Origin: Neisseria sp.
Lineage (GTDB): Bacteria; Pseudomonadota; Gammaproteobacteria; Burkholderiales; Neisseriaceae
Assembly: GCA_041855125.1 (NCBI GenBank)
Contig: JBHADP010000034.1
Coordinates: 8,724-72,723 of the forward strand
Length of the DNA: 64,000 nucleotides
Reading direction: 5' to 3'
Part shown: piece after piece, positions 1,041-46,466 of the stretch
Layout of the letters: every line of letters starts with the position of its first letter
Position numbering within the stretch: the first letter of the stretch is position 1
The notes under the pieces: generated by a model
Databases searched by the model: none
Seen by the model: only the letters and a program-made list of their open reading frames with translations
Told to the model about the DNA's origin: nothing
Translations under genes and position numbers: made by a program

Positions 1041-1076
1041 GTTTCAACACACAGGGCAGCACATCAAGCGCAGCCC
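1041..1076 (-). repeat. Dispersed hairpin+TGTGTTGAAAC unit, copy A
   Basis: Minus strand reads GGGCTGC-GCTTGATGT-GCTGCCCTG-TGTGTTGAAAC; closely similar to copies at 21445 and 35006. Confidence 0.8.
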
Positions 1077-1180
1077 AAGAAATTGAAGTTAAGTGGTGTA
1101 CATAACTCTGCGAATAACAACATTTCTTAACAAACTTTCAGGTATCATACAACATCCATATAAAAAAAGACTATAGGAAC

Positions 1181-1648
1181 ATGATGATGAAGATAAAAAT
1201 GACTTTGGCATGTGTTGCCACTACTTTGGTTTTGGCGGCTTGTGGTGGTGGTTCTGCACCCGCAGCAAGCGATAAAGGTCAAATTTCTGAAAACCGCACC
1301 ACTGCATTTAAAGCCATGATGCCTGATTTTTCTAGCATGGGTAAAATGGTGAAGGGCGAAGAAACTTACGATGTGGAAAAGTTTAAAACCCATGCGGCGG
1401 CATTTGCGGAAAATGCTAAAAAACCATTTGAGTTTTTCCAGAATGACCCTCAAGGCAATGGTGATGCCCTGCCTAATATTTGGGAAAAACCAGCCGAATA
1501 TCAAGCAGAACAAGATAAATTCTTGGCGGCAGTTGCCAATTTAAATGCCAAAGCGCAAACGGGTAATTTGGAAGAAATTAAAGTGGCATACGGTGAAGTT
1601 GGCGCAAGCTGTAAAGCGTGCCATGATACTTATCGCCGTCCTAAATAA
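1181..1648 (+). CDS. cycP: Lipoprotein cytochrome c'
   Basis: Lipobox LAAC; C-terminal CKACH heme motif; class II cytochrome c pattern. Confidence 0.9.
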   Translation: MMMKIKMTLACVATTLVLAACGGGSAPAASDKGQISENRTTAFKAMMPDFSSMGKMVKGEETYDVEKFKTHAAAFAENAKKPFEFFQNDPQGNGDALPNIWEKPAEYQAEQDKFLAAVANLNAKAQTGNLEEIKVAYGEVGASCKACHDTYRRPK

Positions 1649-1680
1649 GCCATAATGTAAACGCCTTCATTTATTTGTTT

Positions 1681-1719
1681 AAAAGCTGAATATTTCTGAT
1701 GGGAAGTATTCAGCTTTTT
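1681..1719 (+). terminator. Intrinsic terminator after cycP
   Basis: AAAAGCTGAATA/TATTCAGCTTTT inverted repeat with T-run. Confidence 0.75.
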
Positions 1720-1916
1720 GTATGGGTGAGAAACAAAATCGGCGGTTTAGCCTGTTTGATTTTTTGTAATGTTAATTGATGTTATTAAAGATTTATACTT
1801 GTAAATTTTTGATACTGCTGGCATGATTCAGGCATAAGCATCATGTTTTGTGGCACAACAAATCATGATAACGGCAAATTTGTCGTGATTACAACAGAAA
1901 TATAGGAAATGAGAAC

Positions 1917-3272
1917 ATGACAAAAAATCATAAACATACACATGCCCAATGGGGTTCGCGTGTTGGTTTTATTTTGGCTGCGGTGGGTTCTGCCGTGGGT
2001 TTGGGTAATATTTGGAAATTCCCTTACATGTTGGGTAAAAGCGGTGGCTCCGCTTTTATGTTTACTTATTTGGCGTGTATTTTGCTGATTGGCTTGCCTA
2101 TTTTGGTGGCGGAATGGATGATTGGTCGCCGTGGTCAGCGCAACCCTGTGGATACCATGAAGATTGTGGCAGAGCAAAACGGTCGCAGTCAGGCTTGGTC
2201 GTGGGTGGGTATTTCAGGCACGCTAGGCGGTTATTTGATTTTGTCGTTTTATAGTGTGATTGGCGGTTGGGCGGTTAATTATATTTTTAAAGCAGGCTCA
2301 GGCGCGTTTGCGGGTTTAAATGGCGATCAAACAGGGGCGATTTTTACGAGTATGTTGGCTGAACCCAGCACGTTGTTACTATGGCATACGGTGTTTATGG
2401 GTTTAACCATAGCGATTGTTGCGGCTGGTGTGGCGGGCGGCTTGGAGCGCGCGTCTAAGATTATGATGCCTATGCTGGCTTTATTTTTGGGTATTTTGGT
2501 TGTTTATGGTATGAACACGGGGCATTTTGGTAAAGCAGTTAGCTTTTTGTTTAGCCCTGATTGGAGTGCCATTAATAAAGATGTGATTTTGGCGGCATTG
2601 GGTCATGCGTTCTTTACCTTATCATTGGGTATGGGCATTATGTTGGCTTATGGCTCTTATTTGGGCAAAGAGGTGAGCTTGATTCGCTCGGCTGCGATTG
2701 TGGTGGCATTGGATACCACAATGGCGGTATTGGCTGGTTTGGCGATTTTCCCGATTGTGTTTGCCAATGGTTTAGACCCTGCGGCAGGGCCTGGCTTGGT
2801 GTTTGTTACTTTACCGATTGCGTTTGGTAGCATGAGCGGTGGCACGATTTTAGGCTTGATTTTCTTCTTGTTATTGAGCTTTGCGGCTTTAACATCGTCT
2901 ATTTCTTTATTGGAATCTGCGGTGGAGTTTTTGGAAGAACGCACGCCGTTAGGTCGTGTGGGCAGTACTTTATTAGCAGGTGTGGTGGTATGGGCTTTGG
3001 GTATCGCTTCTGTGTTGTCGTTTAACTTGTGGAGCGAAGTGAAGTTCTTTGGTTTGAATATTTTTGATTTACTCGATACCTTTACCAGTAAATTTACATT
3101 ACCGCTCACAGGTTTGGCTGCCATTATTTTCTTGGGCTGGTTTATGAAGCAAGACAGTATTCGTGAAGAATTGAATATGGGCGAAGGTCGTTTCAAAATC
3201 TGGCAATTTATCTATCGTGTGGTTGCGCCTATTGGAGTGATTATTGTCTTTGTGGGTCAATTAATGGGTTAA
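1917..3272 (+). CDS. Sodium-dependent transporter, SNF/NSS family
   Basis: [24 protein letters not shown] signature; multiple TM helices. Confidence 0.92.
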   Translation: [451 protein letters not shown]

Positions 3273-3291
3273 TCCGATTGATGCGATGACG

Positions 3292-3317
3292 AAGCTGCCT
3301 AAATGATAGGCAGCTTT
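3292..3317 (+). terminator. Intrinsic terminator
   Basis: AAGCTGCCTA/TAGGCAGCTT inverted repeat. Confidence 0.65.
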
Positions 3318-3425
3318 GTGCATTTTAGGAGAAGATAGCGCAAATTATCGAAACTTGTACGGTGTTCAAACAAGTGTGCTATGATATTTTTTACTCTGCT
3401 TGACTGTTGAAACAGGAGTTTATTT

Positions 3426-3545
3426 ATGTGGCACAAAATGATTCGATTGGTGGCTTTAGCGGTGTTGGGAGCCAGCTTAAGTGCTTGTTATGTGATACAG
3501 CCGCAATCTGGCACCAATGTGGTGATACAAAATCCTGCACGTTAA
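3426..3545 (+). CDS. 39-aa putative lipoprotein (below ORF-track cutoff)
   Basis: AGGAG RBS; MWHKMIRLVALAVLGASLSAC-YVIQPQSGTNVVIQNPAR with LSAC lipobox. Confidence 0.65.
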   Translation: MWHKMIRLVALAVLGASLSACYVIQPQSGTNVVIQNPAR

Positions 3546-3566
3546 TGTCTATTTAAGAGGTTAAAA

Positions 3567-4007
3567 ATGAATAAACGTATGAATTCTTTATTGGCTTGTG
3601 TGGCTTTAGGTGTGGTATTAACAGGCTGTTATGTTGTGCCGATTCAAGATGGTTCGCGTGTGGTGCAAACCAGTAATCTACCCAGTAGTAGTTCAACAGC
3701 CGTGATGCCCAGTTCTACCTTAAATGCTAAATTGTATCCCACTAATGCAGAAGCGCAGCGTTATGGTACGGTTTTTGCCACGGTAAATATTAATCAAACA
3801 GGGCATGGAACATTTAGCGCCAATATTGGTGGTGAAAACTTTAATGGTGATGCCACACGCTATGCCAATTCGCGCAAAGGTAAGGCGAATGGTGCAGGAG
3901 TAGGCGGTCGTTATATTAGTTGTGATTATGAAATGAATACCCACCAACAAGGCATGGGACAATGCCGTATGTCAACAGGGGCAACGTTCTCTATGCACAT
4001 TAATTAA
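3567..4007 (+). CDS. Hypothetical lipoprotein
   Basis: Lipobox LTGC; Ser-rich linker; beta-rich domain with two further Cys; GAGG RBS. Confidence 0.75.
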   Translation: MNKRMNSLLACVALGVVLTGCYVVPIQDGSRVVQTSNLPSSSSTAVMPSSTLNAKLYPTNAEAQRYGTVFATVNINQTGHGTFSANIGGENFNGDATRYANSRKGKANGAGVGGRYISCDYEMNTHQQGMGQCRMSTGATFSMHIN

Positions 4008-4029
4008 TCCCGTTATTGGGTTGTCAATC

Positions 4030-4061
4030 GCATCTTGTGCTGGTCGCAAGATGCTTTTTTA
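4030..4061 (+). terminator. Intrinsic terminator
   Basis: GCATCTTG/CAAGATGC followed by T-run. Confidence 0.7.
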
Positions 4062-4118
4062 TTTTCTTGTGCAAACTTCTACACCATCAGTTTAATGAAT
4101 ATTAGAGTTTATTGATGA

Positions 4119-4258
4119 TTGACCAGCGAAACGGTTTTTTGAGGCAAAAACCGCGTATGCAAGGCAAAAAGCGCAGCAAGGTTGAACACCTTGCGAGCAT
4201 TTTTAACGCCACAAACGGAGGTTTTGAACAAAAATACCGCCATTGCGTTAATGGTCAA
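4119..4258. repeat. 140-bp imperfect palindrome (MITE/ERIC/Correia-like)
   Basis: Terminal TTGACCA/TGGTCAA; nested arms around central GCAAGG-TTGAACA-CCTTGC hairpin; GCAAGGC...AACGCC internal motif. Confidence 0.6.
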
Positions 4259-4311
4259 CAAACCCTAGAATACTCACCTTTATTTTTAAAAAAAGATTAA
4301 GGACTATAACC

Positions 4312-6171
4312 ATGCCAGCCTATCGTTCTAAAACCTCTACTCATGGTCGCAATATGGCAGGAGCGCGTGCGTTGTGGCGCGCTACGGGTGTAACTGATGA
4401 AGATTTTGGTAAGCCCATTATTGCCATTGCCAACTCGTTTACACAATTTGTACCTGGGCATGTGCATTTGCATAATATGGGACAACTGGTTGCACGTGAA
4501 ATTGAAAAAGCAGGTGGTTTAGCCAAAGAGTTCAACACCATTGCTGTAGATGATGGTATTGCGATGGGGCATAGTGGGATGTTGTATAGCTTGCCTAGCC
4601 GTGATTTGATTGCCGATAGTGTGGAATATATGGTCAATGCCCACTGTGCGGATGCGTTGGTGTGCATTTCTAACTGCGACAAAATTACACCGGGGATGTT
4701 GATGGCAGCCATGCGCTTGAATATTCCTACTGTGTTTGTGTCGGGCGGACCAATGGAAGCGGGTAAAGTGATTGGGATTGCCAATATTCAAGATGAACGT
4801 AAATTGGATTTGGTCGATGCGATGGTGGATGCGGCTAATGACCAAGTTTCTGATGAAGAAGTGGCGGCAGTAGAACGTTCGGCTTGTCCTACTTGTGGTT
4901 CTTGTTCGGGTATGTTTACGGCAAACTCAATGAACTGTTTAACTGAAGCCTTGGGATTATCTTTACCGGGTAATGGCTCATTATTGGCAACCCATGCAGG
5001 GCGGAAAGAACTGTTTTTAGAGGCAGGACGTTTGATTGTAGAAATCACCAAGCGTTATTATGAGCAAGACGATGAGAGCGTATTGCCACGCAGTATTGCC
5101 ACCAAAGCCGCGTTTGAAAATGCCATGAGCTTAGATGTGGCAATGGGGGGGTCAACCAATACTGTTTTGCATTTATTAGCGGCTGCCAGCGAAGCAGCAG
5201 TGGATTTTAAAATGGCAGATATTGACCGCATCAGCCGTCAAGTACCTTGCTTGTGCAAAGTTGCCCCTGCCACGCAAAAATACCATATGGAAGATGTACA
5301 TCGTGCAGGTGGCGTGATGGGTATTTTAGCCGAACTGAATCGCGCAGGCTGCTTGCAAACCGATGTTGCCACCGTTCATGCACCCACTTTAAAAGATGCC
5401 CTTGCACAATGGGACGTGATGAATCCTGCCAATGAAACCGCGCACGCCCGTTATAAAGCCGCACCCGCAGGCATACGCACCACCGAAGCCTTTTCGCAAA
5501 ACCGTGAATGGAAAACACTCGACCTTGACCGCGAAAACGGCTGTATCCGCAGTAAAGAACACGCTTATTCACAAGATGGCGGTTTGGCGGTGTTGTTTGG
5601 CAATATTGCTGAACGTGGTTGCGTGGTGAAAACCGCAGGGGTTGATGACAGCATCTTGAAGTTTACAGGACGCGCGCGCGTGTTTGAAAGCCAAGATTCG
5701 GCTGTGGCAGGCATTTTGGCAAACCAAATTGTAGCAGGCGATATTGTGATTATTCGCTACGAAGGACCCAAAGGTGGGCCGGGGATGCAAGAAATGCTGT
5801 ATCCCACTTCTTACCTGAAATCCAAAGGTTTAGGTAAAGCCTGTGCCTTGCTGACCGATGGACGTTTTTCAGGCGGAACATCAGGTTTGAGCATTGGACA
5901 CGTTTCACCTGAAGCAGCAGAAGGTGGTGCGATTGGCTTGGTGCAAGAAGGTGATACCATTGAAATTGATATTCCCAACCGCAGCATTCGTTTAGCCATC
6001 ACCGATGAAGAATTAGCCAATCGCCGTGCTGCGATGGAAGCGCGTGGCGCACAAGCATGGAAGCCCGAAAACCGCGACCGCCATGTTTCCGCCGCTCTGC
6101 GTGCTTATGCCGCCATGACCACTTCGGCAGACACAGGCGCAGTGCGCGATGTGAGCCAAGTGGAGCGTTAA
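4312..6171 (+). CDS. ilvD: Dihydroxy-acid dehydratase
   Basis: [52 protein letters not shown]. Confidence 0.97.
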
Positions 6172-12344: not shown

Positions 12345-13118
12345 TTAGGCATAATCATACGATACCACCAAGGGCGCATGGTCGGAAAATTTTTGTTCTT
12401 TGTAAACAGAAGCGCTGATGGCTTTTTGAGCTAATTCAGGCGTAACCATTTGGTAATCAATCCGCCAGCCCACATCTTTGCTATACGCTTGTCCACGATT
12501 ACTCCACCATGTATAGCCTGCAATTTCGGGATATAGGGTGCGCCAAATGTCCACCCAACCCAATTCTTGAATCACTTTGCTCAACCACGCACGTTCTTCA
12601 GGCAGAAACCCTGAGTTTTTTTGATTGCCTTTCCAGTTTTTTAAATCAATGTTTTGATGTGCGATATTCCAATCACCGCATACCACAACATCTCGTCCTT
12701 CAGCTATGAGACTTTGCAACATGGGATAAAACGCATCTAAAAATTGGTATTTAAAGTCTTGCCGTTCGGGTGCGCTGGTGCCTGAGGGCAAATACAATGA
12801 AATCACGCTGAGCTGACCAAAATCAGCACGCACAAAACGCCCTTCACGGTCGAAGGCTTCGATGCCCATGCCGATTTGAGTGCGGTCGGGTTGTTGTTTG
12901 CTGTAAATCGCCACACCGCTATAACCGCGTTTTTCTGCACAATGCCACACGCCATACATACCATGCGGACGCTGCATATTGCTGCTTAAATCGGCTTCTT
13001 GTGCTTTAAGTTCTTGCACACACACAATATCTGCGCCTGAAGCGGCGATGTAGTCTTCAAAACCTTTTTGATAAGCGGAACGGATGCCATTGACATTGGC
13101 AGAAATAATGGTTAACAC
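12345..13118 (-). CDS. xth: Exodeoxyribonuclease III / AP endonuclease
   Basis: ISANVNGIR, CVQELK, CGDWN, WRIDY, SDHAP; GTG start at 13118 preceded by AGGA. Confidence 0.93.
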   Translation of the reverse strand: MLTIISANVNGIRSAYQKGFEDYIAASGADIVCVQELKAQEADLSSNMQRPHGMYGVWHCAEKRGYSGVAIYSKQQPDRTQIGMGIEAFDREGRFVRADFGQLSVISLYLPSGTSAPERQDFKYQFLDAFYPMLQSLIAEGRDVVVCGDWNIAHQNIDLKNWKGNQKNSGFLPEERAWLSKVIQELGWVDIWRTLYPEIAGYTWWSNRGQAYSKDVGWRIDYQMVTPELAQKAISASVYKEQKFSDHAPLVVSYDYA

Positions 13119-13192
13119 GAGTTGTTTTCCTGTAAGCAAAGAACGCTATTCTACAAACAGTTTTGCTATACTGTCATTGAGTTTGAATACAT

Positions 13193-13218
13193 GGGACAAC
13201 ACATCAAGCGTTGCCCTG
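13193..13218 (-). repeat. Dispersed hairpin unit, copy B (lacks TGTGTTGAAAC tail)
   Basis: Minus strand reads CAGGGCAAC-GCTTGATGT-GTTGTCCC. Confidence 0.65.
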
Positions 13219-13328
13219 AATTGAGTGGGGTGATGCCCCTATCCATTGATGATAATCTGCTGGCAACAGTCGGGTTTTAACCATTAAGTTTTTTTGATGA
13301 ACTCTGATGCCATCTTAAAAAGGAGGAA

Positions 13329-15389
13329 ATGATGCCGTTATCCAATCGTTTGCTGTGTCGTGAAATGAGTTTATTGGCGTTTAATCGCCGTGTGTTGGCG
13401 CAAGCACAAGATACGCGCGTGCCTTTGCTGGAGCGTTTGCGTTTTTTGTGCATTGTTTCTTCTAATTTAGACGAGTTTTTTGAAGTGCGGATGGCGTATT
13501 TAAAGCGGGAACAGAAAATGCGCCCCAATCAAATTTTGGATAGTGGCATGACACCTGCGGAAACCATTGCCGCAACTGCTGAAGAAGCGCATAAATTGGT
13601 GCGTGAACAATATGCTTTGTTTAATGAAGAATTACAGCCTGCTTTAAGTCAAGAGGGGATTCATTTCTATCGCCGCCGTAATTGGACAGCCGCGCAACGT
13701 GCTTGGATTGAAGATTATTTTGCGCGTGAATTGTGGCCGATTTTAACGCCGATTGGTTTAGACCCTGCTCATCCGTTTCCCCGTCCTGTGAATAAATCGC
13801 TGAATTTTGCGGTGGAGTTGGTGGGCAAAGATGCGTTTGGACGCGCTTCAGGCATGGCGATTGTGCAAGCACCGCGTATTTTACCGCGTGTGGTGCAGTT
13901 GCCTGCGGAAATCTGTGGTGGGGACAATGGCTTTGTGTTTTTATCGTCTATTTTGCATGAATATGTTTACAAGTTGTTCCCCGGTATGGACGTGAAAGGC
14001 TGTCATCAATTCCGTTTAACGCGCGACAGTGATTTAACGGTGGACGAGGAAGATTTGCAAAATTTACGCACCGCCATTCAAAGTGAATTGCGCGACCGTG
14101 AATATGGTGATGGCGTGCGTTTGGAAGTGGCAGAAACGTGCCCACAGCATATTTATGAGTTTTTATTGGGGCATTTTCAGTTGGAACGCAGCGAGCTGTA
14201 TCAGGTGAAAGGTCCTGTGAATTTGGTGCGCTTGATGGCGGTGCCTGATATGGTGGATAGACCTGATTTAAAGTTTCCTCCCCGCATTGCGGGTTTACCC
14301 AAATTTCTTGCGAAGAATCAATCGGTCATCGATGCGATTAAGCGGGAAGATATTTTGTTGCATCACCCTTATCAATCTTTTGAACCTGTGGTGCGGTTTA
14401 TTCGCGAAGCGGCTGCCGACCCTGCGGTGGTTGCCATTAAGATGACGATTTATCGCACAGGCTCCAATTCGGAATTGGTGAATGCTTTGATGAAAGCGGC
14501 ATTAAGCGGTAAGCAGGTTACGGTGGTTGTGGAATTGATGGCGCGGTTTGATGAAGCGAATAATGTAAACTGGGCGCAAAAATTGGAAAACGCAGGGGCG
14601 CATGTAGTGTATGGTGTGTTTGGCTATAAGGTTCATGCCAAGATGGCGTTGGTGATACGCCGTGAAGAAGGGGTATTGAAACGCTATGCACATTTGGGAA
14701 CGGGTAATTATCATCAAGGCACCTCTCGGATTTACACGGATTTTGGTTTGCTGACCGCCGATGATGCTATTACCGCCGATGTGAATACTTTGTTTATGGA
14801 AATCACGGGTTTGGGGCAGCCCAGCCGTTTGAATAAGCTGTATCAAAGTCCATTTACTTTGCATAAAATGGTGATGGACAGTATTGAGCGTGAGGCGGAA
14901 CACGCTAAAGCGGGGTTGCCTGCACGCATTATCGCTAAAATGAATTCTTTGATTGAACCCAGTATTATTGAAGCCTTGTATGCTGCCAGTGCGGCAGGGG
15001 TGGAAATTGATTTGATTGTGCGCGGTATGTGTGCGTTGCGTCCTGAAGTGGCGGGTTTATCAGACCATATTCGAGTGCGTTCGATTATTGGTCGGCAGTT
15101 AGAGCATTCGCGTGTGTATTATTTCTATAATAATGGCGCGGAAAATACCTATATTTCAAGTGCCGACTGGATGGGGCGCAATTTTTTCCGCCGCATTGAA
15201 ACGTGTACGCCGATTGAACAAGCGCATTTGAAAGAACGGGTGATTCGGGAAGGTTTAACGCAAGCCTTGCAAGATAATCGCCAATCATGGTTGATGCAAG
15301 CAGATGGCAGTTATGTGCGCGCGCCTGTGGCAGAGGGTTGTGAGGAAGTGAGTATTCAAGAGGATTTGTGGGCAGAATATGGTGCTTGA
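13329..15389 (+). CDS. ppk1: Polyphosphate kinase 1
   Basis: REMSLLAFNRRVL, SNLDEFFEVR, ARFDEANN, KVHAK, LEHSR, SADWMGRN. Confidence 0.96.
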   Translation: MMPLSNRLLCREMSLLAFNRRVLAQAQDTRVPLLERLRFLCIVSSNLDEFFEVRMAYLKREQKMRPNQILDSGMTPAETIAATAEEAHKLVREQYALFNEELQPALSQEGIHFYRRRNWTAAQRAWIEDYFARELWPILTPIGLDPAHPFPRPVNKSLNFAVELVGKDAFGRASGMAIVQAPRILPRVVQLPAEICGGDNGFVFLSSILHEYVYKLFPGMDVKGCHQFRLTRDSDLTVDEEDLQNLRTAIQSELRDREYGDGVRLEVAETCPQHIYEFLLGHFQLERSELYQVKGPVNLVRLMAVPDMVDRPDLKFPPRIAGLPKFLAKNQSVIDAIKREDILLHHPYQSFEPVVRFIREAAADPAVVAIKMTIYRTGSNSELVNALMKAALSGKQVTVVVELMARFDEANNVNWAQKLENAGAHVVYGVFGYKVHAKMALVIRREEGVLKRYAHLGTGNYHQGTSRIYTDFGLLTADDAITADVNTLFMEITGLGQPSRLNKLYQSPFTLHKMVMDSIEREAEHAKAGLPARIIAKMNSLIEPSIIEALYAASAAGVEIDLIVRGMCALRPEVAGLSDHIRVRSIIGRQLEHSRVYYFYNNGAENTYISSADWMGRNFFRRIETCTPIEQAHLKERVIREGLTQALQDNRQSWLMQADGSYVRAPVAEGCEEVSIQEDLWAEYGA

Positions 15390-21412: not shown

Positions 21413-21444
21413 GATGTTTCTCCTGTTGGTTGATGAGGAAGAAG

Positions 21445-21483
21445 GTTTCAACACACAGGACGACACATAAAGCGTCGCCCTAC
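21445..21483 (-). repeat. Dispersed hairpin+TGTGTTGAAAC unit, copy C
   Basis: Minus strand reads GTAGGGCGAC-GCTTTATGT-GTCGTCCTG-TGTGTTGAAAC. Confidence 0.8.
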
Positions 21484-21506
21484 ATGAAATGATTATATAG
21501 CAATTT

Positions 21507-23945
21507 TTAACGGCGCAAACGCAAAGCATTCAGCAATACCAGCAAAGAGCTGGAACTCATGCCCAAAGCGGCTATCCAAGGATTGACCAATCCTGCCACT
21601 GCCAATGGCACAGCGATAAGATTATAAGCACTTGCCCAAATCAGATTTTGGCGAATGATTCGTGCCGTTTTACGGGCTTGCTGAATGGTGGCAGGGATAG
21701 CAGTCATTTCATCATTCAGCAAGACAATATCCGCGCCATCGCGTGCCACATCTGCCCCACTGGCAACCGCAATCGACACATCAGACGCTGCCAACACAGG
21801 CGCATCATTAATGCCATCGCCTATCATCAACACTTTTTTACCTTGTCGTTGCAAGGTTTCCACATAAGCCAGCTTGTCTTCGGGAGTGGCTTCGGCATGA
21901 ATATGGGGAATGTTTAAGGTTTGAGCTAAGGCTTGTACGGCAGCTTGGCGGTCGCCACTTAAAATATGTAGGTGTAAACCTTGTTGTGTCAGTTGTGCCA
22001 ACATGGTGGGAATTTGGGCTTTGGTTTGGTCTTGCAGCAAAAAGGCAGCAACAAAACCCTGTTGGTTGCCTAAGGCAATCACCGTGCCATGATGTTGAAT
22101 GTGTTGTAACTCGGTGGGCAGTGCGCCTGCGGTTTCTTGCACAAATTCAGGGCGACCAATCGACCATTGTTGGTTTTGTCCGTGTAGAGTGAGTTGGGCG
22201 CGTACACCATGTCCCACGCGATTAATGCGCTGTTCACTGTGAACGTGAAGGGTGGACGCGGTGGATAATTGGGCAATGGCACGCGCGATGGGGTGTTCTG
22301 ATTGTTGTTCCAACACTTGAGCAAGATAGATGGCATCATCTTGGCTCAAGTTGTGAAACAGCATGATGTGTTGCACGGCAAGTTTGCCTTCGGTGAGTGT
22401 ACCTGTTTTATCAAACACCACATCGGTGGCGAGTGCTAAGGTTTCGAGCGCTTGGCTGCCCGACACTAAAATGCCTTGTCCTGCTAACTTGCCTGTTGAA
22501 GCGGCAAGTGCGGTGGGTGTGGCAAGCGAGAGGGCGCAAGGGCAGGTAATCACCAACAGGGAAACCGTAATCCACAAAGCTTTATAAATATCGGCATACC
22601 ACCACCAGCCCAAAAAGACAGGAATGGCAAATAAGATGGTACTTAGTACAAACGAAGAAGCGTATTTATCAGCTAACACAGCCAAACGCGGTTTTTGTGA
22701 TAAAGCGCGGTCAAGCAGTTTTACGATATGCGCCAAACGGGTGCGGTTGCCCACTTCATCAGCGCGAATAATTAACGGGCTGGCAGTGTTGAGCGTGCCT
22801 GCGGTAACTTTATCGTGAGTGGTTTTGCTGATGGGGAGGTTTTCACCCGTGAGCATGGCTTCATCCACAGCGCTTTCGCCCGATAAAACCGTGCCGTCCA
22901 CAGGAATCACTTCGCCCGCTCGTACCACAATCACATCGCCTGTTTTGAGTTTAACCACGGCGGCTTCTACGCTTTGTTCATTTGGATAATCGGGCAAATG
23001 ATGGCAAAAAGCAGGTACCAGTTTCACCAAGCGTTCTGCCGCATCGCCTGCTTTACGCCGCGCGTCTTGTTCCATAAAACGACCCAGCAGCAGCAAAAAC
23101 ACCAGCATCGCCAAGCCTTCAAAATACATACCTTCGCCTGCATCACTAAAGAGGGCGTATAAGCCAGCCAGCGAGGTGAGAAAAATGGCAAGTGTGATGG
23201 GGGTATCCATGCCTGCACGGCGGTTTTTGATGTCGCGCCAAAAGCCTTGATAAAACGGAACGGCAGAATACAACAACACTGGCAACGCCATTAAAAATAC
23301 GCCCCAATGCAAAATGGTGAGGTAAAGCGGTTCAATGTCGTTATAAAGATAAGTGGGCAGGGCAAACATCATGGTTTGCATCATGGATAAACCTGCCACC
23401 GCCACGCGAATCAGGGATTTTTTGCGTTCTTGTTGTGCGCTGGCTTCTGCTTTTTGTGCGTCATACGGTGCAGCAGAATAACCTGTTTGCTGAATGCGCA
23501 ACAGGATATCGGATAATTTCACACGGCTGTCATCCCATTGAATGCGGGCGCGTTGGGTGCTGTAATTGAGTTCTACGCTAACGATGCCATTGAGTCGCAA
23601 TAATTGTTGTTCAATCAGCCACACGCATGCCGCACAGGTGATGCCGTGTAGCATCAATACTGCCTCGCGCTGGTGTTCGGCTAAGGTTTCCACAAAATCG
23701 GCTTGCACTTCAGGTAAGTCATACAGTTTGAGCTGCTCTAAGATTTCGGGAGGGGGCAAACCTGCTTGTTCAGCTTGCGCGGTGCGTTGTTTATAGTAAT
23801 TGCCCAAGCCTGCATCAATAATGCTTTGCGCCACCGCTTGACAGCCCGCACAACAGGTGGGGTGTTCTTGGTGTTCATATTGAATGGGCAATTCGGTATG
23901 AGGGGGGACAGGAAGTCCGCAATGGAAGCAGTTTTTTTCGTTCAT
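21507..23945 (-). CDS. ccoI: Heavy-metal (Cu) P1B-type ATPase, CcoI/FixI type
   Basis: CFHC..CCAGC N-terminus, CAAC HMA, CPCALSL, DKTGT, SEHP, GDGIND. Confidence 0.9.
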   Translation of the reverse strand: MNEKNCFHCGLPVPPHTELPIQYEHQEHPTCCAGCQAVAQSIIDAGLGNYYKQRTAQAEQAGLPPPEILEQLKLYDLPEVQADFVETLAEHQREAVLMLHGITCAACVWLIEQQLLRLNGIVSVELNYSTQRARIQWDDSRVKLSDILLRIQQTGYSAAPYDAQKAEASAQQERKKSLIRVAVAGLSMMQTMMFALPTYLYNDIEPLYLTILHWGVFLMALPVLLYSAVPFYQGFWRDIKNRRAGMDTPITLAIFLTSLAGLYALFSDAGEGMYFEGLAMLVFLLLLGRFMEQDARRKAGDAAERLVKLVPAFCHHLPDYPNEQSVEAAVVKLKTGDVIVVRAGEVIPVDGTVLSGESAVDEAMLTGENLPISKTTHDKVTAGTLNTASPLIIRADEVGNRTRLAHIVKLLDRALSQKPRLAVLADKYASSFVLSTILFAIPVFLGWWWYADIYKALWITVSLLVITCPCALSLATPTALAASTGKLAGQGILVSGSQALETLALATDVVFDKTGTLTEGKLAVQHIMLFHNLSQDDAIYLAQVLEQQSEHPIARAIAQLSTASTLHVHSEQRINRVGHGVRAQLTLHGQNQQWSIGRPEFVQETAGALPTELQHIQHHGTVIALGNQQGFVAAFLLQDQTKAQIPTMLAQLTQQGLHLHILSGDRQAAVQALAQTLNIPHIHAEATPEDKLAYVETLQRQGKKVLMIGDGINDAPVLAASDVSIAVASGADVARDGADIVLLNDEMTAIPATIQQARKTARIIRQNLIWASAYNLIAVPLAVAGLVNPWIAALGMSSSSLLVLLNALRLRR

Positions 23946-24046
23946 GGCGGGGGATTTTACGCGCAAATGCAGGCGAAAGAAAAGGGTTCTGGTGTTATGA
24001 AAAAACCGCCTGCGTATCAACACAGGCGGTGATGTGAGTAAACGGT

Positions 24047-34759: not shown

Positions 34760-34835
34760 TCCCCGATAGCTCAGTCGGTAGAGCGACGGACTGTTAATCC
34801 GCAGGTCGCTGGTTCGAGCCCAGCTCGGGGAGCCA
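34760..34835 (+). tRNA. tRNA-Asn(GTT)
   Basis: Cloverleaf: TCCCCGA/TCGGGGA acceptor, GTT anticodon, GGTTCGAG T-loop, encoded CCA. Confidence 0.97.
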
Positions 34836-34871: not shown

Positions 34872-34933
34872 GCTGTCTCTCCAAAAGCCCATCTTATGAT
34901 GCAAAGCCACCCTTCATCAAATTTTCTTTTTGG

Positions 34934-35043
34934 TTGAAACCCCGCCATTGATGGCGGATCATTCAAACAGGGGGGGCGTAACCCCTTCTGTTTCAGAGCA
35001 ACACACAGGGCGACGCTTGATGTGTTGTCCTGTGTGTTGAAAC
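34934..35043 (+). repeat. Composite three-hairpin element X ending in copy D of the TGTGTTGAAAC unit
   Basis: Colinear similarity with 46375-46466. Confidence 0.7.
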
Positions 35044-35069
35044 ATGGATACAAGCGGTTGGTACCTTAT

Positions 35070-35118: not shown

Positions 35119-37192
35119 TTAGAAAGTGTAGTTCAATGCAACACGATATTCACGACCTGCACCGGGTAAATCACTGCGTTGGGCGTGAGGGATATAATTT
35201 TTGTTGGCAATATTATTGATGGCAAAATTCACATTCATTTTGTCCTTACCAAAAGGTTTCCAGTTGGCAATAATATCGGTTACGCCATAAGAGGGTTTAT
35301 CGCGGGTGGTGGCGGTAACAGTTTGATGAGACAAGAAAATAGTATCTTGCTTGTTCAATTTTTCCACTTGGCGATGTTGTACACCAATTTCTAAATTCGG
35401 TTTAGCAAAACGATAGGACAATGAACCCGTCCAAGTGCGACCAGTACGCATTGCATATTCAGGCTTATTGCTTAAAAGTTCACCATAAAATTTCGGCTTA
35501 CTGTGGGCAACGCCTAAACGCGCGATCCAACCGTTTTTACGGAATGATGCGCCCAATTCATAGCCTGAATTTTTCACTTTACCCGCATTGATAATTTCTG
35601 AGTAACAGGTGCGGTTGCCCCCTGTACACAAGTGATTATTGCGACCTGTGGTGGTGCCTAAGGCATCATTGATATTTTGCCAGAAATAGCTGCCTTCAAA
35701 GCCAAAAGTGCCGTCATTGTAGTTAAAACCAATTTCGGTGTTTCTGGCTTTTTCTGCTTTGGTGCCATTGGCAATGGAAACGATACCACGCGCACCATGT
35801 GCCATTAAAGCATCATGCATACGAGGGCTACGAGTGGCATAGTTATGGCTAGCGCTCAAGCTCAAAGCAGGCAGGGCTTGCCAAATCACACCCACGCTAG
35901 GATTCACGGCACCATCGCTTACTTTTTTGCCATCCATGGCTTTAAAATTAAAATGGTCATAACGTAAACCTGTGGTGAGCGTTACATTTTTAATATCCGT
36001 AATCAGCTCTGCATAAGTGCCCACATCTTGTTTTTCTTGATTGTTTATCCCTGCAAGGAAAAATTGATTGGGTTTCACTTCTTGAGTGCGGTAGTTCACA
36101 CCATATTTCAACAACATATTATCCCGAATATTGGAATCAAAATTGACATTGGCACCAATGGTTTCCACTTCGGTTTTGGTAGAACCCGTATTGCGATTGC
36201 CGCCTGCATAGCCATTACCTGCATCGCTGGCAGACCAACGACCATGTTCCATGCGATAAATATTGGCATTGGCAGCTTGAGCAAAGCCTAAATCTTTCGC
36301 CGTCCATTCCAAATTGGTGTTGGTAACGCTCATTTTACGCATCGCAGGGGCTTGGCGTGCCACAGAAAGGTCGCGGGCAATAGAAAATTCTTCGCGCACC
36401 AAGCGGTCGCCTTCATGTTGCTCTTTCATATGGCTCAATGCAAAGCGATGGTCGCCCACATTTGCACCAATTTTTGCCAGATAGCTGATTTTATCCAATG
36501 CGCTATACGGTACTTTATTCAAACCTGTTGCTGAATTAATATAACCTTTACCGCCTTCATATTCATTTTCATTGACGCGGTTGCCTGCGATTAAGTAGTC
36601 AAACACCTCGTTTTTGCCAAATACCGACAAGCCATAGTTATGACCATCATTGCTGCTGTATCCTGCATTGATTTTGGCACCAAAATTAGGATTGCTGCTG
36701 TTTTTCAATAAATCTTTAGCATCTAAGGTTTTGGCAATGATGGCACCATTGGTTTGACCAATACCTGCTGATGCGCTGCCTGCACCTTTTTGCACCGATA
36801 CAATTTTCACCAAAGCAGGGTCTAACATATGACGACCTTGGTGATAGTGGATTTGGCTGTCGGAATAAGCATTGTCTAGCTTAATATCCACCGAGTTTTG
36901 TCCCATATTGCGGATATACAGATATTGCGATGTACCATTACCGCCGCCGATGGCAATTGCAGGTTCATCTTTAAACAAGCCGCGTAAATCGGTTTCGGTG
37001 CTTTCGTCTTTTAATTGGGTGGTAACCACATTGGTTTTAACTTTCATCCCTTGGCGGTCGCCCGTAACCGTTACGGTGTCAAGATGCGCGGTCGTGGTTT
37101 CGGGGGGGAGAGGCTGTATCAGCAAATGCAGGAACAGCAAATAATGCACCTAATACAGCAGTTGTTAAAGGGACGGGTTTAAAATGAGTCAT
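35119..37192 (-). CDS. fetA: FetA/FrpB-like TonB-dependent iron receptor, frameshifted (+1) at C7 tract after the signal peptide
   Basis: LDTVTVTGDRQG TonB box, GGGNGTSQ, DPALVK, C-terminal NYTF; signal peptide starting 37192 is out of frame with the body. Confidence 0.85.
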
Positions 37193-41656: not shown

Positions 41657-41757
41657 TGTTTATTGGCAGGGGAAAAAATTTAAGGGCATATTGTAGCGGA
41701 AAAATTTGTGCTGATGGGTTTTGTTGATAAGATGGCGCTTTTTTGGGGAGGATAAAG

Positions 41758-42375
41758 ATGGCTTTGGTGTATTTGGCTTCGGGCAGTCCGCGCCGCCGTG
41801 AGATTTTGCAGCAATTAGGTTATCAGGTGGAACGGTTGGTGGCGGAAATTGATGAAACGCCTGATGGGGGCGAAACGGCTTGGGATTATGTGCAGCGTAT
41901 GGCGCAGGAAAAAAATGCTGCCGCCGTGCAAAAATGGTATCAGCAGTGTGATGATGCCCCTGCTGCGCCTATTATCACGGCTGATACAACGGTGGCACTG
42001 CATAATCAGATTTTGGGTAAACCGCAGCATGCAGAACACGCACAAGAGATATTGTCGGCTTTATCGGGCAACACGCATCAGGTTTTAACGGCGGTGTGTG
42101 TGTCTTTTCAAGGGCAAACGGAAAGTGTGGTGCAAAGCAGTGATGTGTGTTTTAAAACGCTAACGTCTGCTGAAATTCAAGCCTATATTGCTACGGGCGA
42201 GCCGATGGATAAGGCTGGGGCGTATGGTATTCAAGGTTTGGGCGGGGTGTTTGTGCATCATTTAGAAGGCAGTTTTACGGGGGTGATGGGTTTGCCTGTG
42301 TATGAAACGTGTGCATTATTGGCAAAAATGGCTTATGTGGTGCCGCCATTTTTACCGAATTTGATTAAAAAATAG
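41758..42375 (+). CDS. maf: Maf family nucleoside triphosphate pyrophosphatase
   Basis: LASGSPRR, ADTTV, GKP, DKAGAYGIQG; GGAGG RBS before MALVYL. Confidence 0.92.
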   Translation: MALVYLASGSPRRREILQQLGYQVERLVAEIDETPDGGETAWDYVQRMAQEKNAAAVQKWYQQCDDAPAAPIITADTTVALHNQILGKPQHAEHAQEILSALSGNTHQVLTAVCVSFQGQTESVVQSSDVCFKTLTSAEIQAYIATGEPMDKAGAYGIQGLGGVFVHHLEGSFTGVMGLPVYETCALLAKMAYVVPPFLPNLIKK

Positions 42376-42400
42376 GCAATTTAATAAGCTATTTGTTTTG

Positions 42401-42473
42401 TATGGATAAATTGGACTTATCCACCGCTTTTTTGCCGAGTTATCCACAATGATGGGGGATAAGTTGGGGAAAA
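42401..42473. promoter_or_regulatory. Cluster of five DnaA-box-like 9-mers
   Basis: TTATCCACA at 42440 plus four near matches in both orientations. Confidence 0.6.
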
Positions 42474-42490
42474 TGGTTCCCCCAACAGAT

Positions 42491-44467
42491 TTATGATTGC
42501 CAATGGCGTTTGGCAACTTTGTGAATGCGTTTTAACCAAGCACGTTGGCGGGCTTTGCTGGGCAGTTTGTCGGTGGCGTAATACCAGTATTCATATTCGG
42601 CAAGTAAGGTATTGATTTCGGGGTCGTGAATGTGGTTGGCTTGTAGCCATTGTTGTAATTCGTGGGCAGACCAAGCTGCAAGGCGTTCATCGTCTTCGCC
42701 TAAGAATGTGGCTTTGAGCAGTAAAAAGCCTTCTACCAATGGCTCTTGTTCTTGTCGTCTTCCTTCGCGCCACCACCACCAAATGGGGAAACACGCCAAA
42801 ATCAAACCCACCGCCAACACCAATGCGAAACTGCTGATGTTAAAGCTGCCTAAGCCCAATAAGGCAAATAGGCTGTTTTGCCGACTTTGGTCGTAATTGA
42901 CGACCCATTGTTGCCAATAGAATTGTCCTGTTTCTGCCCATGTTTGCCATGTGCTGTTTTGGCTGGGAAGCAGTTCGCGTTCGTTTTCGGGCAAGGCTGC
43001 GTCTAATCCGCCTTGGATGCGTCCTGATACTGCGCCTGTGGGGTCAACGCGCAACCATGCTTGTTCATTGGGCAACCACACTTCTGCCCATGCGTGGGCA
43101 TTTTTGCTGCGGATTTGCCAGAAATTGCCATTGCTTTGGTATTCGCCCCCTAAATAGCCTGTTACCACGCGAGCAGGCACGCCTGCCGCCCGCATCATGA
43201 CCACAAAACTTTGGGCATAATGTTCACAAAAGCCTCGTTTATGGGTAAACATAAAGGTGTCGATGCTGTCCATGCCTTCGGCTTTGGGTGGTTGTAGGGT
43301 GTAGGAAAACTGTTGGCGGCGATAATAGTTGAGCGTGTTATCCACAAAAGAGCGCACGCTATTGGATTGTGTTGCCAGTTGTTGTGCTAATTGACGGGTG
43401 CGGAAATTACCGCTCGCAGGCAGATGAAGATATAAGGCTTGTTCGCCCTCTTTTAATACATGAGGTAGGGTATCGCTGGCGGTGGCGGTGAGTGCGACCC
43501 GCCGTAAACCATCACGACTTCGCACACGTAACACATCGCCCAAACGCACTTGCATACTGCTTATGTTGGGGTTGGGTGGAAGGGGATAATCTAAGGCAGG
43601 AATGATGCCGTTTTGGTCGCGCAATATCATTTGATAATCGAGCATTTGGGCAGCAGAACGCGCTTGCGGTTGGGCGTTGTCAATGTAATCATTTGCCACC
43701 GCGCGCCAACTGATGCCGTTGAAGTCTGCCATAATGATGGCGCGCCAATACAGTTCTTGTTGTTGCGGTTGGCGACCATTGAAGGTAACGTTGGCAACCA
43801 GTTCATTGCTTTGCACCAAATCGCTGATGCTACCAGGTTGCATGGTTTCTGATAAACCCGTTTGCGCTTTGCCTTTGTCTTGTTGTGGAATACGCCAAAA
43901 GGGTTCGTTTTTGCGTGGTACGGCAATAAACAACACCGCCATTAAAGGCAAGGTGAGCATTAAGGCTTGTGTGCCTCGTTTGGCTGCTTCTTTGCCATCT
44001 AAACCGCATAACACCGCAAAACATATGCTCACCATAAAGAGCGACAATAAAAGCCACATTCCCACCAAGAGGCTTTGGTTAAACAAAACCGATGAGCCTA
44101 TTAAAAACAACATCGCCAACAGCAAGATTTGCAAATCGCGTTGTGTGTTGCCTTCATAGGCTTTCAGCATAATCATTAGTAACAAAAAGGAAATACCGCC
44201 TTCTCGTCCCACCACGCTGCCCAATTGTTGCCACACTAAACCGCCGCCCACCAAGATTAAGCCAATTAAAACGGGCAGGGGCATTTTATTGAGATTCAGT
44301 TGTAACAACACCATACGCAAAAGCCACAAGCAGGCAAAAACGACCATCACCGCAGGCGGCAAAGCAGTTAGCAGAGGCAAAGTAGTCCACAATAAAGCCA
44401 ATAAAATGGTTGCCATCACTGCGCGTGAAGGGGGATGTTGCAAGAAAGCAGGATTGAGAATAATCAT
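42491..44467 (-). CDS. tgpA: Transglutaminase TgpA family membrane protein (DUF3488 + TGase-like)
   Basis: TM N-terminus; GFCEHYA, GVPARVVTGY, AHAWAEV, RVDPT. Confidence 0.9.
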   Translation of the reverse strand: MIILNPAFLQHPPSRAVMATILLALLWTTLPLLTALPPAVMVVFACLWLLRMVLLQLNLNKMPLPVLIGLILVGGGLVWQQLGSVVGREGGISFLLLMIMLKAYEGNTQRDLQILLLAMLFLIGSSVLFNQSLLVGMWLLLSLFMVSICFAVLCGLDGKEAAKRGTQALMLTLPLMAVLFIAVPRKNEPFWRIPQQDKGKAQTGLSETMQPGSISDLVQSNELVANVTFNGRQPQQQELYWRAIIMADFNGISWRAVANDYIDNAQPQARSAAQMLDYQMILRDQNGIIPALDYPLPPNPNISSMQVRLGDVLRVRSRDGLRRVALTATASDTLPHVLKEGEQALYLHLPASGNFRTRQLAQQLATQSNSVRSFVDNTLNYYRRQQFSYTLQPPKAEGMDSIDTFMFTHKRGFCEHYAQSFVVMMRAAGVPARVVTGYLGGEYQSNGNFWQIRSKNAHAWAEVWLPNEQAWLRVDPTGAVSGRIQGGLDAALPENERELLPSQNSTWQTWAETGQFYWQQWVVNYDQSRQNSLFALLGLGSFNISSFALVLAVGLILACFPIWWWWREGRRQEQEPLVEGFLLLKATFLGEDDERLAAWSAHELQQWLQANHIHDPEINTLLAEYEYWYYATDKLPSKARQRAWLKRIHKVAKRHWQS

Positions 44468-44507
44468 GATGTAATGTGTGGAAATGTAGTTATTATGTTG
44501 AAGCGGT

Positions 44508-45455
44508 TTACCATAAAGCTAAGGCGGTTAAACAAATTTCTCGTTGCCCTTTTTGCGGCACAATGGTGCGTTGCGGCAATTCTAAGGTGTAAAGCAAACC
44601 GCGTTGTTCTGCTTCTAACACACGGTAACACAATAAACCTGCCAACCGTTCAACTGCGGTGCCTGCGGGGTAGTCTAAATAAGAAATCACGGTGTTATTG
44701 ATAGCCGCAGGCGGTTCTTCAAACCGTTTGTCTAATAATTGCCCTGTTTTGGCATAGGTTTTCCATGCGATATGTTGCAAGGAAACGCCTTCTTGATGGT
44801 CGATTAAATACGATAAATCATCGCCACCGACAATAGGTGTACTCTTGCGTTTTTCCTCTTCATTCGGAGTGCGGCTGGCAGGGGTTTCATGTGCGATAGG
44901 GGCAGGATAAACCACCGCATCGCTGGGCCAATGCCAAATACATTGCACCATGCTTAAACCAAAGGGCGCAACCGATGCCGTGCGTAATGAGGGTACACGC
45001 AAATAGCCGCGCATTAAGGTGGGAATTGACCATTGAAACATGCTAGGCGTGTTTGCGCTGATGTGCCAAGCGTGCCACAGCTTATCAGGTGCAGTATTGG
45101 GATTGAGAAAATCATCTTCACTGCACAGCCATAACCAACGGCGGCGATGATTGTGAGATGAAATCAGCTCTAACGTGGCTGTTCCTCCTGCAAACACTTC
45201 TTTTGGCATTTCCACATCAATGCGAAACGCCAATAATTGCCGAAAGTTGAGCAAAATTGCCACCACCAAAAAACCAGCCAACCAAAATGCCGCCACATAA
45301 GCCAAATTGACCTGATAATTTACCCCCACCAGCCATAACAGTCCCACTAATACCACCAAGCCCGCGCCCAAGCGCGTGGGGCGGCAATAAATCGCTGCTA
45401 GGGTGGGCGTGCGTGATGGGGCAACAGGCAAACGATGTTTACTGAACAGCCACAT
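44508..45455 (-). CDS. DUF58 domain protein
   Basis: RG..PFGL, YPAP, IAWK pattern; canonical position between moxR and tgpA. Confidence 0.8.
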   Translation of the reverse strand: MWLFSKHRLPVAPSRTPTLAAIYCRPTRLGAGLVVLVGLLWLVGVNYQVNLAYVAAFWLAGFLVVAILLNFRQLLAFRIDVEMPKEVFAGGTATLELISSHNHRRRWLWLCSEDDFLNPNTAPDKLWHAWHISANTPSMFQWSIPTLMRGYLRVPSLRTASVAPFGLSMVQCIWHWPSDAVVYPAPIAHETPASRTPNEEEKRKSTPIVGGDDLSYLIDHQEGVSLQHIAWKTYAKTGQLLDKRFEEPPAAINNTVISYLDYPAGTAVERLAGLLCYRVLEAEQRGLLYTLELPQRTIVPQKGQREICLTALALW

Positions 45456-46353
45456 GATTCAAAATATCCATCAATAATTGACTGCTGCTCAAACCCTGTT
45501 GCACAGGTTGCAAACGATGATTGGCAACAGGAATCCACACCGATTTAATATCATCAGGCAACACATGCGGACGACCATGAATAAATGCCGATGCTTTGGC
45601 AGCTTGTACCACCGCCAAACCTGCTCGTGGGCTTAATCCTGTTACAAAACGTCCTGATTGGCGCGTGGCTTGCACCAAACGGAACACATAATCTGCTGCT
45701 GCTGTAGCAAATTTCACTTGGCGTACTTCTTCTTGCCATTGTTGCAACAGCGCAGCATGGCAAACAGCTTGCAAAGCAGGCAAAGTTTGACGGCGGTCGC
45801 CTGCAAAATATAATTGTTTTTCCGCTTCAGGCGCAGGATAACCCATGCTCAAACGCATCATAAAGCGGTCTAATTGAGATTCGGGCAGTGGGAAGGTGCC
45901 TAATTGTTCGGTGGGGTTTTGCGTGGCAACCACCAAAAAGGGTTTGGGCAGCGCATAAGTGGTGCCATCAACTGACACCTGTTGTTCTTCCATGGCTTCC
46001 AGTAATGCCGATTGCAATTTAGGTGAAGCGCGGTTGATTTCGTCTGCCAATAAAAAAGAATGGAACACAGGACCGGGGTGAAACTCAAATTTACCCTCAT
46101 TGGGGCGATAAACATTCACACCCAATAAATCAGAAGGCAACATATCATTGGTAAATTGTACACGGCGATAGTCCAGCCCCAATACTGCTGCCACACCATG
46201 CGCCAATGTGGTTTTCCCCACCCCTGGCACATCTTCCAATAACACATGCCCACCTGCTAAAACAGCAGTGAGTAATTGTTGTAACACATTTTCTTTTCCC
46301 AAAATCAGCTTGTTAAGCTGTTGTAATGCGTGTTGAATAGATGGATTCATCAT
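45439..46353 (-). CDS. moxR: MoxR family AAA+ ATPase
   Basis: DVPGVGKT, QFTNDMLPSD, DEINRA, ATQNP, LPESQLDRF. Confidence 0.94.
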   Translation of the reverse strand: MMNPSIQHALQQLNKLILGKENVLQQLLTAVLAGGHVLLEDVPGVGKTTLAHGVAAVLGLDYRRVQFTNDMLPSDLLGVNVYRPNEGKFEFHPGPVFHSFLLADEINRASPKLQSALLEAMEEQQVSVDGTTYALPKPFLVVATQNPTEQLGTFPLPESQLDRFMMRLSMGYPAPEAEKQLYFAGDRRQTLPALQAVCHAALLQQWQEEVRQVKFATAAADYVFRLVQATRQSGRFVTGLSPRAGLAVVQAAKASAFIHGRPHVLPDDIKSVWIPVANHRLQPVQQGLSSSQLLMDILNHVAVQ

Positions 46354-46374
46354 GTATTCCTTTTTTTATTGAGA

Positions 46375-46466
46375 TTGAAACCCCACCATTTAGGGTGGAG
46401 CATTGGGGTGTAAGCCCAACCAATTCAGAGCGGCACGATTTTAAGTGTCGTTCTGAATATTGAAAC
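46375..46466 (+). repeat. Composite three-hairpin element Y
   Basis: TTGAAACCCCACC...GGTGG, GGGT-GTAA-GCCC, TCAGAGCGGCAC...GTGTCGTTCTG-AATATTGAAAC; homologous to 34934-35043. Confidence 0.7.

Follow-up and report, generated by a model that had tools for sequence, protein, structure and literature searches.

Hairpin-and-tail units of a Neisseria genome probably belong to the REP2/CREN repeat and share the foot and tail of the type I-C CRISPR repeat

Reviews describe REP2 of Neisseria as a repeat of 59-154 bp, present in ~26 copies, that lacks terminal inverted repeats (TIRs), contains internal stem-loops, and carries a promoter, a ribosome-binding site (RBS) and an ATG that are fused to open reading frames (ORFs). 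It has been documented in the literature immediately upstream of pilC1 (and also of crgA and nhba), where the 150-bp form upstream of nhba is known as CREN (contact regulatory element of Neisseria), and a REP2 promoter with induction on host-cell contact has been reported; the origin and spread of REP2 are acknowledged in a review as an open question. We analyzed a stretch of 64,000 nt from Neisseria sp. (assembly GCA_041855125.1, contig JBHADP010000034.1, positions 8,724-72,723 of the forward strand, C34:8724-72723; hereafter, the window), in which an earlier note, made from the sequence alone, had described dispersed solitary units consisting of a hairpin and an 11-nt tail and shaped like a Neisseria type I-C CRISPR repeat. 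Our analysis indicates, with a probability of roughly 0.85, that these units correspond to one module, the distal stem-loop, of an intergenic repeat already known from Neisseria, namely REP2/CREN, which measures ~120-150 nt and has no TIRs.

The element to which these units belong resembles REP2/CREN in its length (119-141 nt), its lack of TIRs, its stem-loops, its terminal RBS and ATG on unrelated genes, its homology, and its position and orientation at pilC. It differs in being present in about 100 copies here, as compared with roughly 23-26 reported for pathogenic species, in having a central hairpin that is a local variant in this genome (AAACAGGAGGGG...), and in showing a sigma70-like promoter on the opposite strand. 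A review describes the IR-A/IR-B plasmid repeats of Borrelia as likewise situated directly upstream of genes and as comprising two stem-loops together with a promoter, an RBS and an ATG, but they have no sequence homology to REP2 and the likeness is one of analogy only. ERIC, Correia and similar repeats are likewise dispersed, structured, intergenic and co-transcribed, and can alter the expression of neighboring genes; however, they have TIRs or are near-palindromes, and none terminates in a Shine-Dalgarno (SD) site and ATG. The Neisseriaceae type I-C repeat (N. lactamica type) shares with the units a hairpin base of CAG...CTG followed by TGTGTTGAAAC, whereas its stem and loop are unrelated to theirs, and the units are unarrayed, have no spacers, and occur in genomes without a I-C system. 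Racr anti-CRISPR RNAs and CreA/CreR-type regulators are near-complete repeat copies, found one or a few at a time in cas loci or mobile elements. As so described, these RNAs are similar to the units in presenting a single repeat-like hairpin outside an array, but REP2 comprises ~100 chromosomal copies that share only the foot and tail of the repeat.

A 29-nt degenerate pattern of the unit matched the window 4 times, compared with 0.00 matches expected from 100 shuffles of the window, and recovered the units that had been placed at 1041-1076(-), 21445-21483(-) and 35006-35043(+), the fourth match being the unit at 13181-13218(-). In the whole source genome (G000; 2.03 Mb in 153 contigs, 45.6% GC) we counted 68 copies of the unit at no more than 5 mismatches, and the commonest 12-mers of this genome were words containing TGTGTTGAAAC, with the top 12-mers coming only from REP2 and CRISPR repeats. 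The 9-bp stem covaried, with both sides changing in 7 of the 9 pairs, in keeping with the earlier observation that stem substitutions mostly keep pairing; the observed values were reached by none of 500 shuffles, although the copies used had been pre-selected for at least 7 of 9 pairs, and pairing collapsed to 34-51% when the stem was slid out of register as a control. The sequence CTG-TGTGTTGAAAC was identical in 50 or more of 57 copies, and the tail is the best-conserved part of REP2. Of the consensus start given as CAG, only a minority form was recovered, as 15 of the 57 copies began with CAG while 39 began with TAG.

Conservation extended for ~95 nt into the flank on one side of the unit, which identified the unit as the distal module of a ~130-nt element comprising three stem-loops, an SD site and an ATG. 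The idea that the units are solitary thus did not hold, as they are mostly positions ~90-131 of a ~131-nt element, and in the window only those at 1039-1079(-) and 21444-21486(-) consist of the distal module alone. A 131-position nhmmer model of this element, built from 34 copies of the source genome and applied at a cut-off of E<=0.01, gave 134 matches in that genome, of which 120 were non-overlapping and 78 near full length. We refer to the CRISPR-like sense as the F strand and to the RBS/ATG (gene, mRNA) sense as the R strand. The F-strand consensus reads CAT-CAAATTTCCTTTTCGG-TTGAAAC-CCCGCCATTGATGGCGG-ATCATTCAAACAGGAGGGGCGTAACCCCTTCTGTTTCAGGGCAACACGTAGGGCGACGCTTTATGTGTCGTCCTGTGTGTTGAAAC-AT, and TIRs are absent, the ends reading CATCAAATTTCC... 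and ...GTTGAAACAT. On the R strand the order is ATG-TTTCAACAC and the long distal hairpin, next a G-rich hairpin whose loop is of the GTAA type, followed by a CCGCC/GGCGG hairpin and then by GGTTTCAACC, AAGGAAA, ~5 nt and ATG, so that this strand terminates in ...GGGGTTTCAACCGAAAAGGAAATTTG-ATG-AA, an SD site followed by a start codon. The ATG of this terminus (AAGGAAATTTG-ATG) opened an ORF of at least 100 codons in 32 of 70 copies (46%), compared with 15.5% of random ATGs and 53% of SD-preceded ATGs. On the tail side, full copies faced a gene start in 30 of 78 cases and the 3' end of a gene in 35 of 78. From this arrangement, the last bases of REP2 would serve the downstream gene as its SD site and start codon, and REP2 would be a portable 5' leader and translation-start cassette, for which a regulatory role may be supposed.

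Other interpretations of this anatomy were considered and set aside. Insertion at SD-ATG sites with duplication of the ATG was rejected, and the distal ATG is considered to belong to the element consensus, because an ATG precedes TTTCAAC in 56 of 82 copies but an upstream SD is found in only ~15. A 26-codon mini-ORF starting at this distal ATG was discarded in view of the stem covariation, which points to structure and not to coding. Integron attC-like core sites did not fit either, as GTTGAAA departs from GTTRRRY and TTGAAAC occurs twice in direct, not inverted, orientation. Hairpin 1 was dismissed as a second repeat-like unit of a "mini-array" because Neisseria copies do not conserve the ATTCAAAC tail that follows it. 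A common 119-nt variant (e.g. contig C1 1405-1523 and contig C144 11661-11779 of the source genome) lacks 12 nt (ACGTAGGGCGAC); the deletion sits between the direct repeats AGGGCAAC and AGGGCGAC and brings about direct pairing of the left arm's outer part with the inner part of the right arm. Head-to-tail pairs of REP2 were seen in the same genome at C22 9962-10193, C42 6415-6653, C66 3483-3873, C87 26462-26708 and C89 659-953, each with the SD-ATG end of the first element adjoining the second where the latter starts with ATGTTTCAAC.

The same element was found outside the source genome. A 20-mer specific to the element matched 73 stretches in public genomes, mostly of Neisseria species, and the own-genome model detected full-length copies with the same order of modules in at least six Neisseria species, including N. 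meningitidis, N. gonorrhoeae, N. lactamica, N. polysaccharea and N. sicca, with E-values of 1e-25 to 1e-34. Copies were located directly upstream of pilC, in the same orientation, in N. gonorrhoeae (locus L081) and at both N. lactamica pilC genes (L083, L084); the one N. meningitidis pilC locus examined contained no element.

The members in the window, the parts of the canonical copy C in F sense, and one non-member are as follows.

1039-1079, minus strand: copy A, distal module only (nhmmer model positions 91-131), between divergent ORFs
13181-13298, minus strand: copy D, full-length diverged REP2 (nhmmer 42 bits, model positions 2-129)
21444-21486, minus strand: copy B, distal module only (nhmmer), in sense orientation between co-directional genes
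34915-35045, plus strand: copy C, full-length canonical REP2 (nhmmer 146.8 bits, model positions 1-131)
34915-34917, plus strand: CAT of copy C (reverse complement of ATG), followed by the anti-SD sequence, the proximal GGTTGAAAC and hairpin 1
34934-34962, plus strand: putative sigma70-like promoter in copy C, matched by consensus only (-35 TTGAAA, 17-nt spacer equal to hairpin 1, -10 GATCAT)
~34969-34994, plus strand: hairpin 2 of copy C
34999-35039, plus strand: 18-bp distal hairpin of copy C
35033-35043, plus strand: tail TGTGTTGAAAC of copy C
46357-46468, plus strand: copy E, full-length diverged REP2 (nhmmer 45.9 bits, model positions 9-131)
51859-51895, minus strand: hairpin of loose similarity, next to a terminator-like stem rich in GC; not a member

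Two of the units had been delimited too narrowly in the earlier note. The copy called tail-less at 13193-13218(-) is a real unit that occupies 13181-13218(-) within copy D and retains a degenerate tail, CATGTATTCAAAC, and the diverged copy at 46425-46466(+) is indeed a diverged member of the family, but is part of the full-length copy E. The possible unit at 51859-51895(-) gave no nhmmer match at E<=0.01.

The surroundings of these copies vary. Copy C, with a predicted fold of -34.9 kcal/mol (z -6.2), is an orphan that serves no gene, being flanked toward the SD by a tRNA (34760-34832(+)) and toward the tail by ORF 35119-37149(-), which presents its 3' end. The SD/ATG end of copy E abuts and is fused to the ATG of the 304-aa ORF 45439-46353(-), and that of copy D faces, at a distance of 30 nt, the 686-aa ORF 13329-15389(+), with its tail side facing the start of ORF 12345-13139(-). 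The ATG of ORF 174-1019(-) follows 21 nt after the end of the tail of copy A, and on the other strand this copy begins upstream of the AGGAAC-ATG of ORF 1181-1648(+), at a distance of 140 nt or one REP2 length; in its predicted fold, GUUGAA of the tail pairs with an upstream UUCAAU. Copy B lies between ORF 21507-24023(-) and a downstream gene with its ATG at 21412-21410, is identical over 39 nt to units in N. gonorrhoeae and N. polysaccharea, and is predicted to form a 15-bp stem in which UGUG of the tail is paired; it was also considered as a terminator, but no terminator-like site was found there. Copies A and B would be truncated or decayed REP2 elements that have retained the best-conserved module. 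Among the distal-only units, only 3-4 of 12 lay in sense orientation within a leader, so that copies A and B are not typical in this respect. An Rfam scan of the window yielded only a tRNA and a glycine riboswitch, the aptamer of the latter at 49761-49857(+) (RF00504, 60.3 bits).

We surveyed 151 genomes of the family, from 25 genera, with the distal-module pattern as the marker of REP2. The module was present in 41 of the 151 genomes and in 4 of the 25 genera, and the source genome, with 62 copies by this pattern, had the highest number of all; REP2 has expanded to about 100 copies in this lineage. At coaBC, the element was present in the source genome and in 0 of 18 relatives of the same genus, and the protein starts MKN-SKQ in the source genome as compared with M-SKH in the relatives. 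The empty site in the relatives and the additional N-terminal residues fit a lineage-specific insertion that donated the start codon; neither an insertion junction nor a target-site duplication could be defined at this locus, as the intergenic DNA of the relatives is too diverged to align.

REP2 was also seen in records labeled as other genera (loci L003, L016, L024, L028, L021, L052 and L053). These comprise four ~850-bp contigs labeled Haemophilus haemolyticus, in which a ksgA-like start is fused to an identical REP2, one contig labeled Brevundimonas vesicularis, and copies in a metagenome-assembled genome labeled Actinobacillus sp. that are 97% identical to the own-genome consensus; such records likely reflect contamination, mis-binning or transfer. 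The source genome was almost without DNA uptake sequences (DUS), with 0 occurrences of ATGCCGTCTGAA, 10 of GCCGTCTGAA and 21 each of the two best-represented dialects, while the intergenic DNA of genomes from the same GTDB genus was full of classical DUS hairpins (GCCGTCTGAA).

As the units had been likened to a type I-C repeat, the CRISPR systems of the source genome bear on their interpretation. It contains two I-C arrays of 13 repeats each, one on contig C99 downstream of cas1-cas2 and one orphan array on contig C55 adjoining greA, with the repeat GTCAGCCGCC-TTCG-GGCGGCTG-TGTGTTGAAAC and variants (G)TCAGCCGCC-TTCG-GGCGGCTG-(T/C)GTGTTGAAAC. Cas1c on C99 scored 393.8 bits against a cut-off of 385, Cas2 was present, and the cas3 gene was cut off by the end of contig C85. 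No Cas5d was detected in the source assembly, probably owing to a gap in which the central part of the operon is missing. The I-C segments had a GC content of 56-58%, against a genome value of 45.6%, and the system was thus probably acquired by horizontal transfer. A separate I-F system, with 29 repeats (GTTAACCGCCACACAGGCGGCTTAGAAA) and its own cas1, is located on contig C98. In two other genomes of the same genus, G129 and G108, the Cas8c gene is decayed, with 3 internal stop codons in G129 (C5:87439-88740) and in three fragments in G108 (C1:919841-921568), in what appear to be the remains of a I-C system that was lost. In genome G010, which has an intact Cas8c, the repeat is CTCAGCCGCC-TCACAC-GCGGCTG-TGAATTGAAAC.

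The resemblance to the N. lactamica I-C repeat that the earlier note had described was borne out in the host's own arrays (C99, C55), whose repeat has its last 14 nt in common with the REP2 module and shares with it the stem base and 11-nt 3' overhang. Cas5d has been reported to recognize precisely a stem base and 3' overhang, leaving an 11-nt tag, and these parts match the cognate repeat in 50 or more of the 57 copies. We found no literature linking REP2 with CRISPR, and the connection between REP2 and the I-C repeat is apparently undescribed and unexplained.

Several observations weigh against the assignment to REP2/CREN, or against the published picture of that element. The name rests on homology, on position at pilC and on reviews. 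About half of the copies are without fusion to a recognizable gene. The F strand folds better than the strand with the RBS and ATG, with a mean minimum free energy of -45.0 versus -37.8 kcal/mol for own-genome copies and -58.2 versus -48.4 kcal/mol for Neisseria copies; relative to composition-matched shuffles, the z values of the F and mRNA strands were -6.3 versus -4.0 (own) and -5.7 versus -4.5 (Neisseria), and G.U pairs in F-strand stems were about double those of the mRNA strand. As the copies are mutually related, this folding advantage is suggestive only. At a fixed position on the F strand there is a sigma70-like site whose -35 is the proximal TTGAAA, whose spacer of 17-18 nt is hairpin 1, and whose -10 is GATAAT or GATCAT in the own genome and TAGAAT in Neisseria. 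A promoter score of at least 9/12 was reached on this strand by 39 of 65 own-genome copies and 46 of 60 Neisseria copies, as compared with 7-8% of shuffles, and on the RBS/ATG strand by only 2 of 65 and 0 of 60. Judged from sequence, the promoter and the better fold are thus predicted to lie on the strand opposite the RBS and ATG, contrary to what the published model would lead one to expect. The site points toward hairpin 2 and the distal module; if active as an outward-firing promoter, it would give rise to a transcript of hairpin 2 and the distal hairpin in the sense that resembles the CRISPR repeat, the sole visible route to an RNA that Cas5d could access. A meningococcal differential RNA-sequencing paper does not mention REP2. 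Finally, the REP2 module and the I-C repeat share CAG...CTG-TGTGTTGAAAC, and their last 14 nt (CTGTGTGTTGAAAC) are identical and terminate at the same base; this identity with a co-resident I-C repeat is too long for chance, and covers exactly the reported Cas5d determinants.

It has to be considered that the units are CRISPR-repeat mimics that, when transcribed in the repeat sense, are bound or cut by I-C Cas5d or Cascade and function as decoys or regulators or supply guide-like RNAs. The host I-C arrays with their CTGTGTGTTGAAAC end, the presence of Cas1c, Cas2 and Cas3, and the reported reading of stem base, 3' overhang and 11-nt tag by Cas5d all favor such a role, as do the conserved sigma70-like promoter that points through the module in the repeat sense, on the better-folding strand, the sense orientation of copies A and B within gene leaders, and a literature report that one repeat and spacer suffice for a working N. 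lactamica guide. However, REP2 was not associated with I-C arrays across the 151 genomes, 67 of which carry this repeat type, and within the genus arrays were found in 9 of 12 REP2-rich genomes (at least 5 REP2 modules) versus 43 of 62 others, so that co-occurrence with type I-C was not observed. Three genomes (G098, G033 and G045) keep 15-24 modules without Cas8c and without arrays, and the REP2-rich G129 and G108 have only the broken Cas8c and no I-C array. According to the literature, N. gonorrhoeae has REP2 but no CRISPR, and N. lactamica Cascade expressed in N. gonorrhoeae imposed only a small, guide-independent fitness cost. The two sequences did not change together, as the CRISPR tail of G010 is TGAATTGAAAC while its REP2 tails are TGCG/TGGG/TGAG-TTGAAAC, and the array variant CGTGTTGAAAC of C99 is not mirrored in own-genome REP2. 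We also looked for covariation between the tail and upstream arm in G010, which was partial, with A-T replaced by G-C in ~9 of 17 copies and the other tail variants unpaired. Structurally, the upper stem and loop differ from those of the repeat, and the tail is predicted to be partly paired and thus not an 11-nt single strand: the true I-C repeat is predicted to fold into an 8-bp stem with all 11 tail nt free, whereas the folds predicted for copies A, B and C engage 4-7 tail nt in pairs, and those of full REP2 copies join the TGTGTTG of the tail to a CAACACG located upstream, giving an 18-bp hairpin. The orientation to genes is mixed, with few distal-only units in sense within a leader (the 3-4 of 12 mentioned above), and Cas5d is missing from the source assembly, probably due to the gap. 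A Cas-dependent role thus fails tests of co-occurrence, covariation and predicted structure and is not supported, and we consider the mimic explanation improbable, although an accessory interaction may take place in I-C-positive hosts; REP2 is maintained independently of I-C.

A tentative alternative, which we hold to be possible though doubtful, is that the distal module has a common origin with the I-C repeat of Neisseriaceae, through copying of one from the other or recombination between them, and that their identity is a relic without present interaction. The 14-nt identity ending at the exact same base, the wide occurrence of both in the family (41 and 67 of the 151 genomes, respectively) and the G010 tails, which have drifted apart as unlinked relics would, are consistent with this history. 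The likeness is, however, limited to the stem base and tail, with wholly different stems and loops, which is odd for simple descent, and the tail is the best-conserved part of REP2, so that something still constrains it. A mobile element of the REP/RAYT (REP-associated tyrosine transposase) or MITE (miniature inverted-repeat transposable element) type, moved by a hairpin-recognizing transposase, would account for many intergenic copies with a conserved hairpin, some of which start with GTAG. Yet the source genome has no Y1_Tnp/RAYT gene (PF01797), TIRs and inverted doublets are absent, with paired copies arranged head-to-tail, and no target-site duplication could be defined, which makes this explanation very improbable; the earlier suggestion of a REP-like family came closest to the truth in proposing a dispersed repeat family, which REP2 is, though without the Y1 transposase of REP/RAYT. 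With the assignment to REP2/CREN retained, we read the 14-nt identity as shared history or convergence, with no present dependence on Cas proteins.

As the element itself is known, the units are largely explained. What goes beyond the literature found is that the most conserved module of REP2 ends in exactly the reported Cas5d determinants of the Neisseriaceae I-C repeat; that the CRISPR-like strand folds better and carries a promoter-like site conserved between genera, which questions the picture of promoter, RBS and ATG on a single strand; and that none of the other family genomes in the sample of 151 has a REP2 expansion as large as that of the source genome. It is conceivable, though in our estimation quite unlikely, that REP2 is a two-faced cassette, with SD and ATG on one strand and, on the other, a promoter firing from TTGAAA-N17/18-GATAAT/TAGAAT through the hairpin with the Cas5d handle, to yield an RNA that Cas5d or Cascade binds or cuts in I-C-positive Neisseria. 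If so, this RNA might soak up Cas proteins, undergo Cas-dependent processing, or give rise to guide-like RNAs from the flanks; a chromosomal repeat family would then be linked to CRISPR, and in I-C-negative species the RNA would act alone. As N. lactamica has both REP2 and a functional, tractable I-C system, a link between REP2 and Cas proteins would be directly testable in this commensal.

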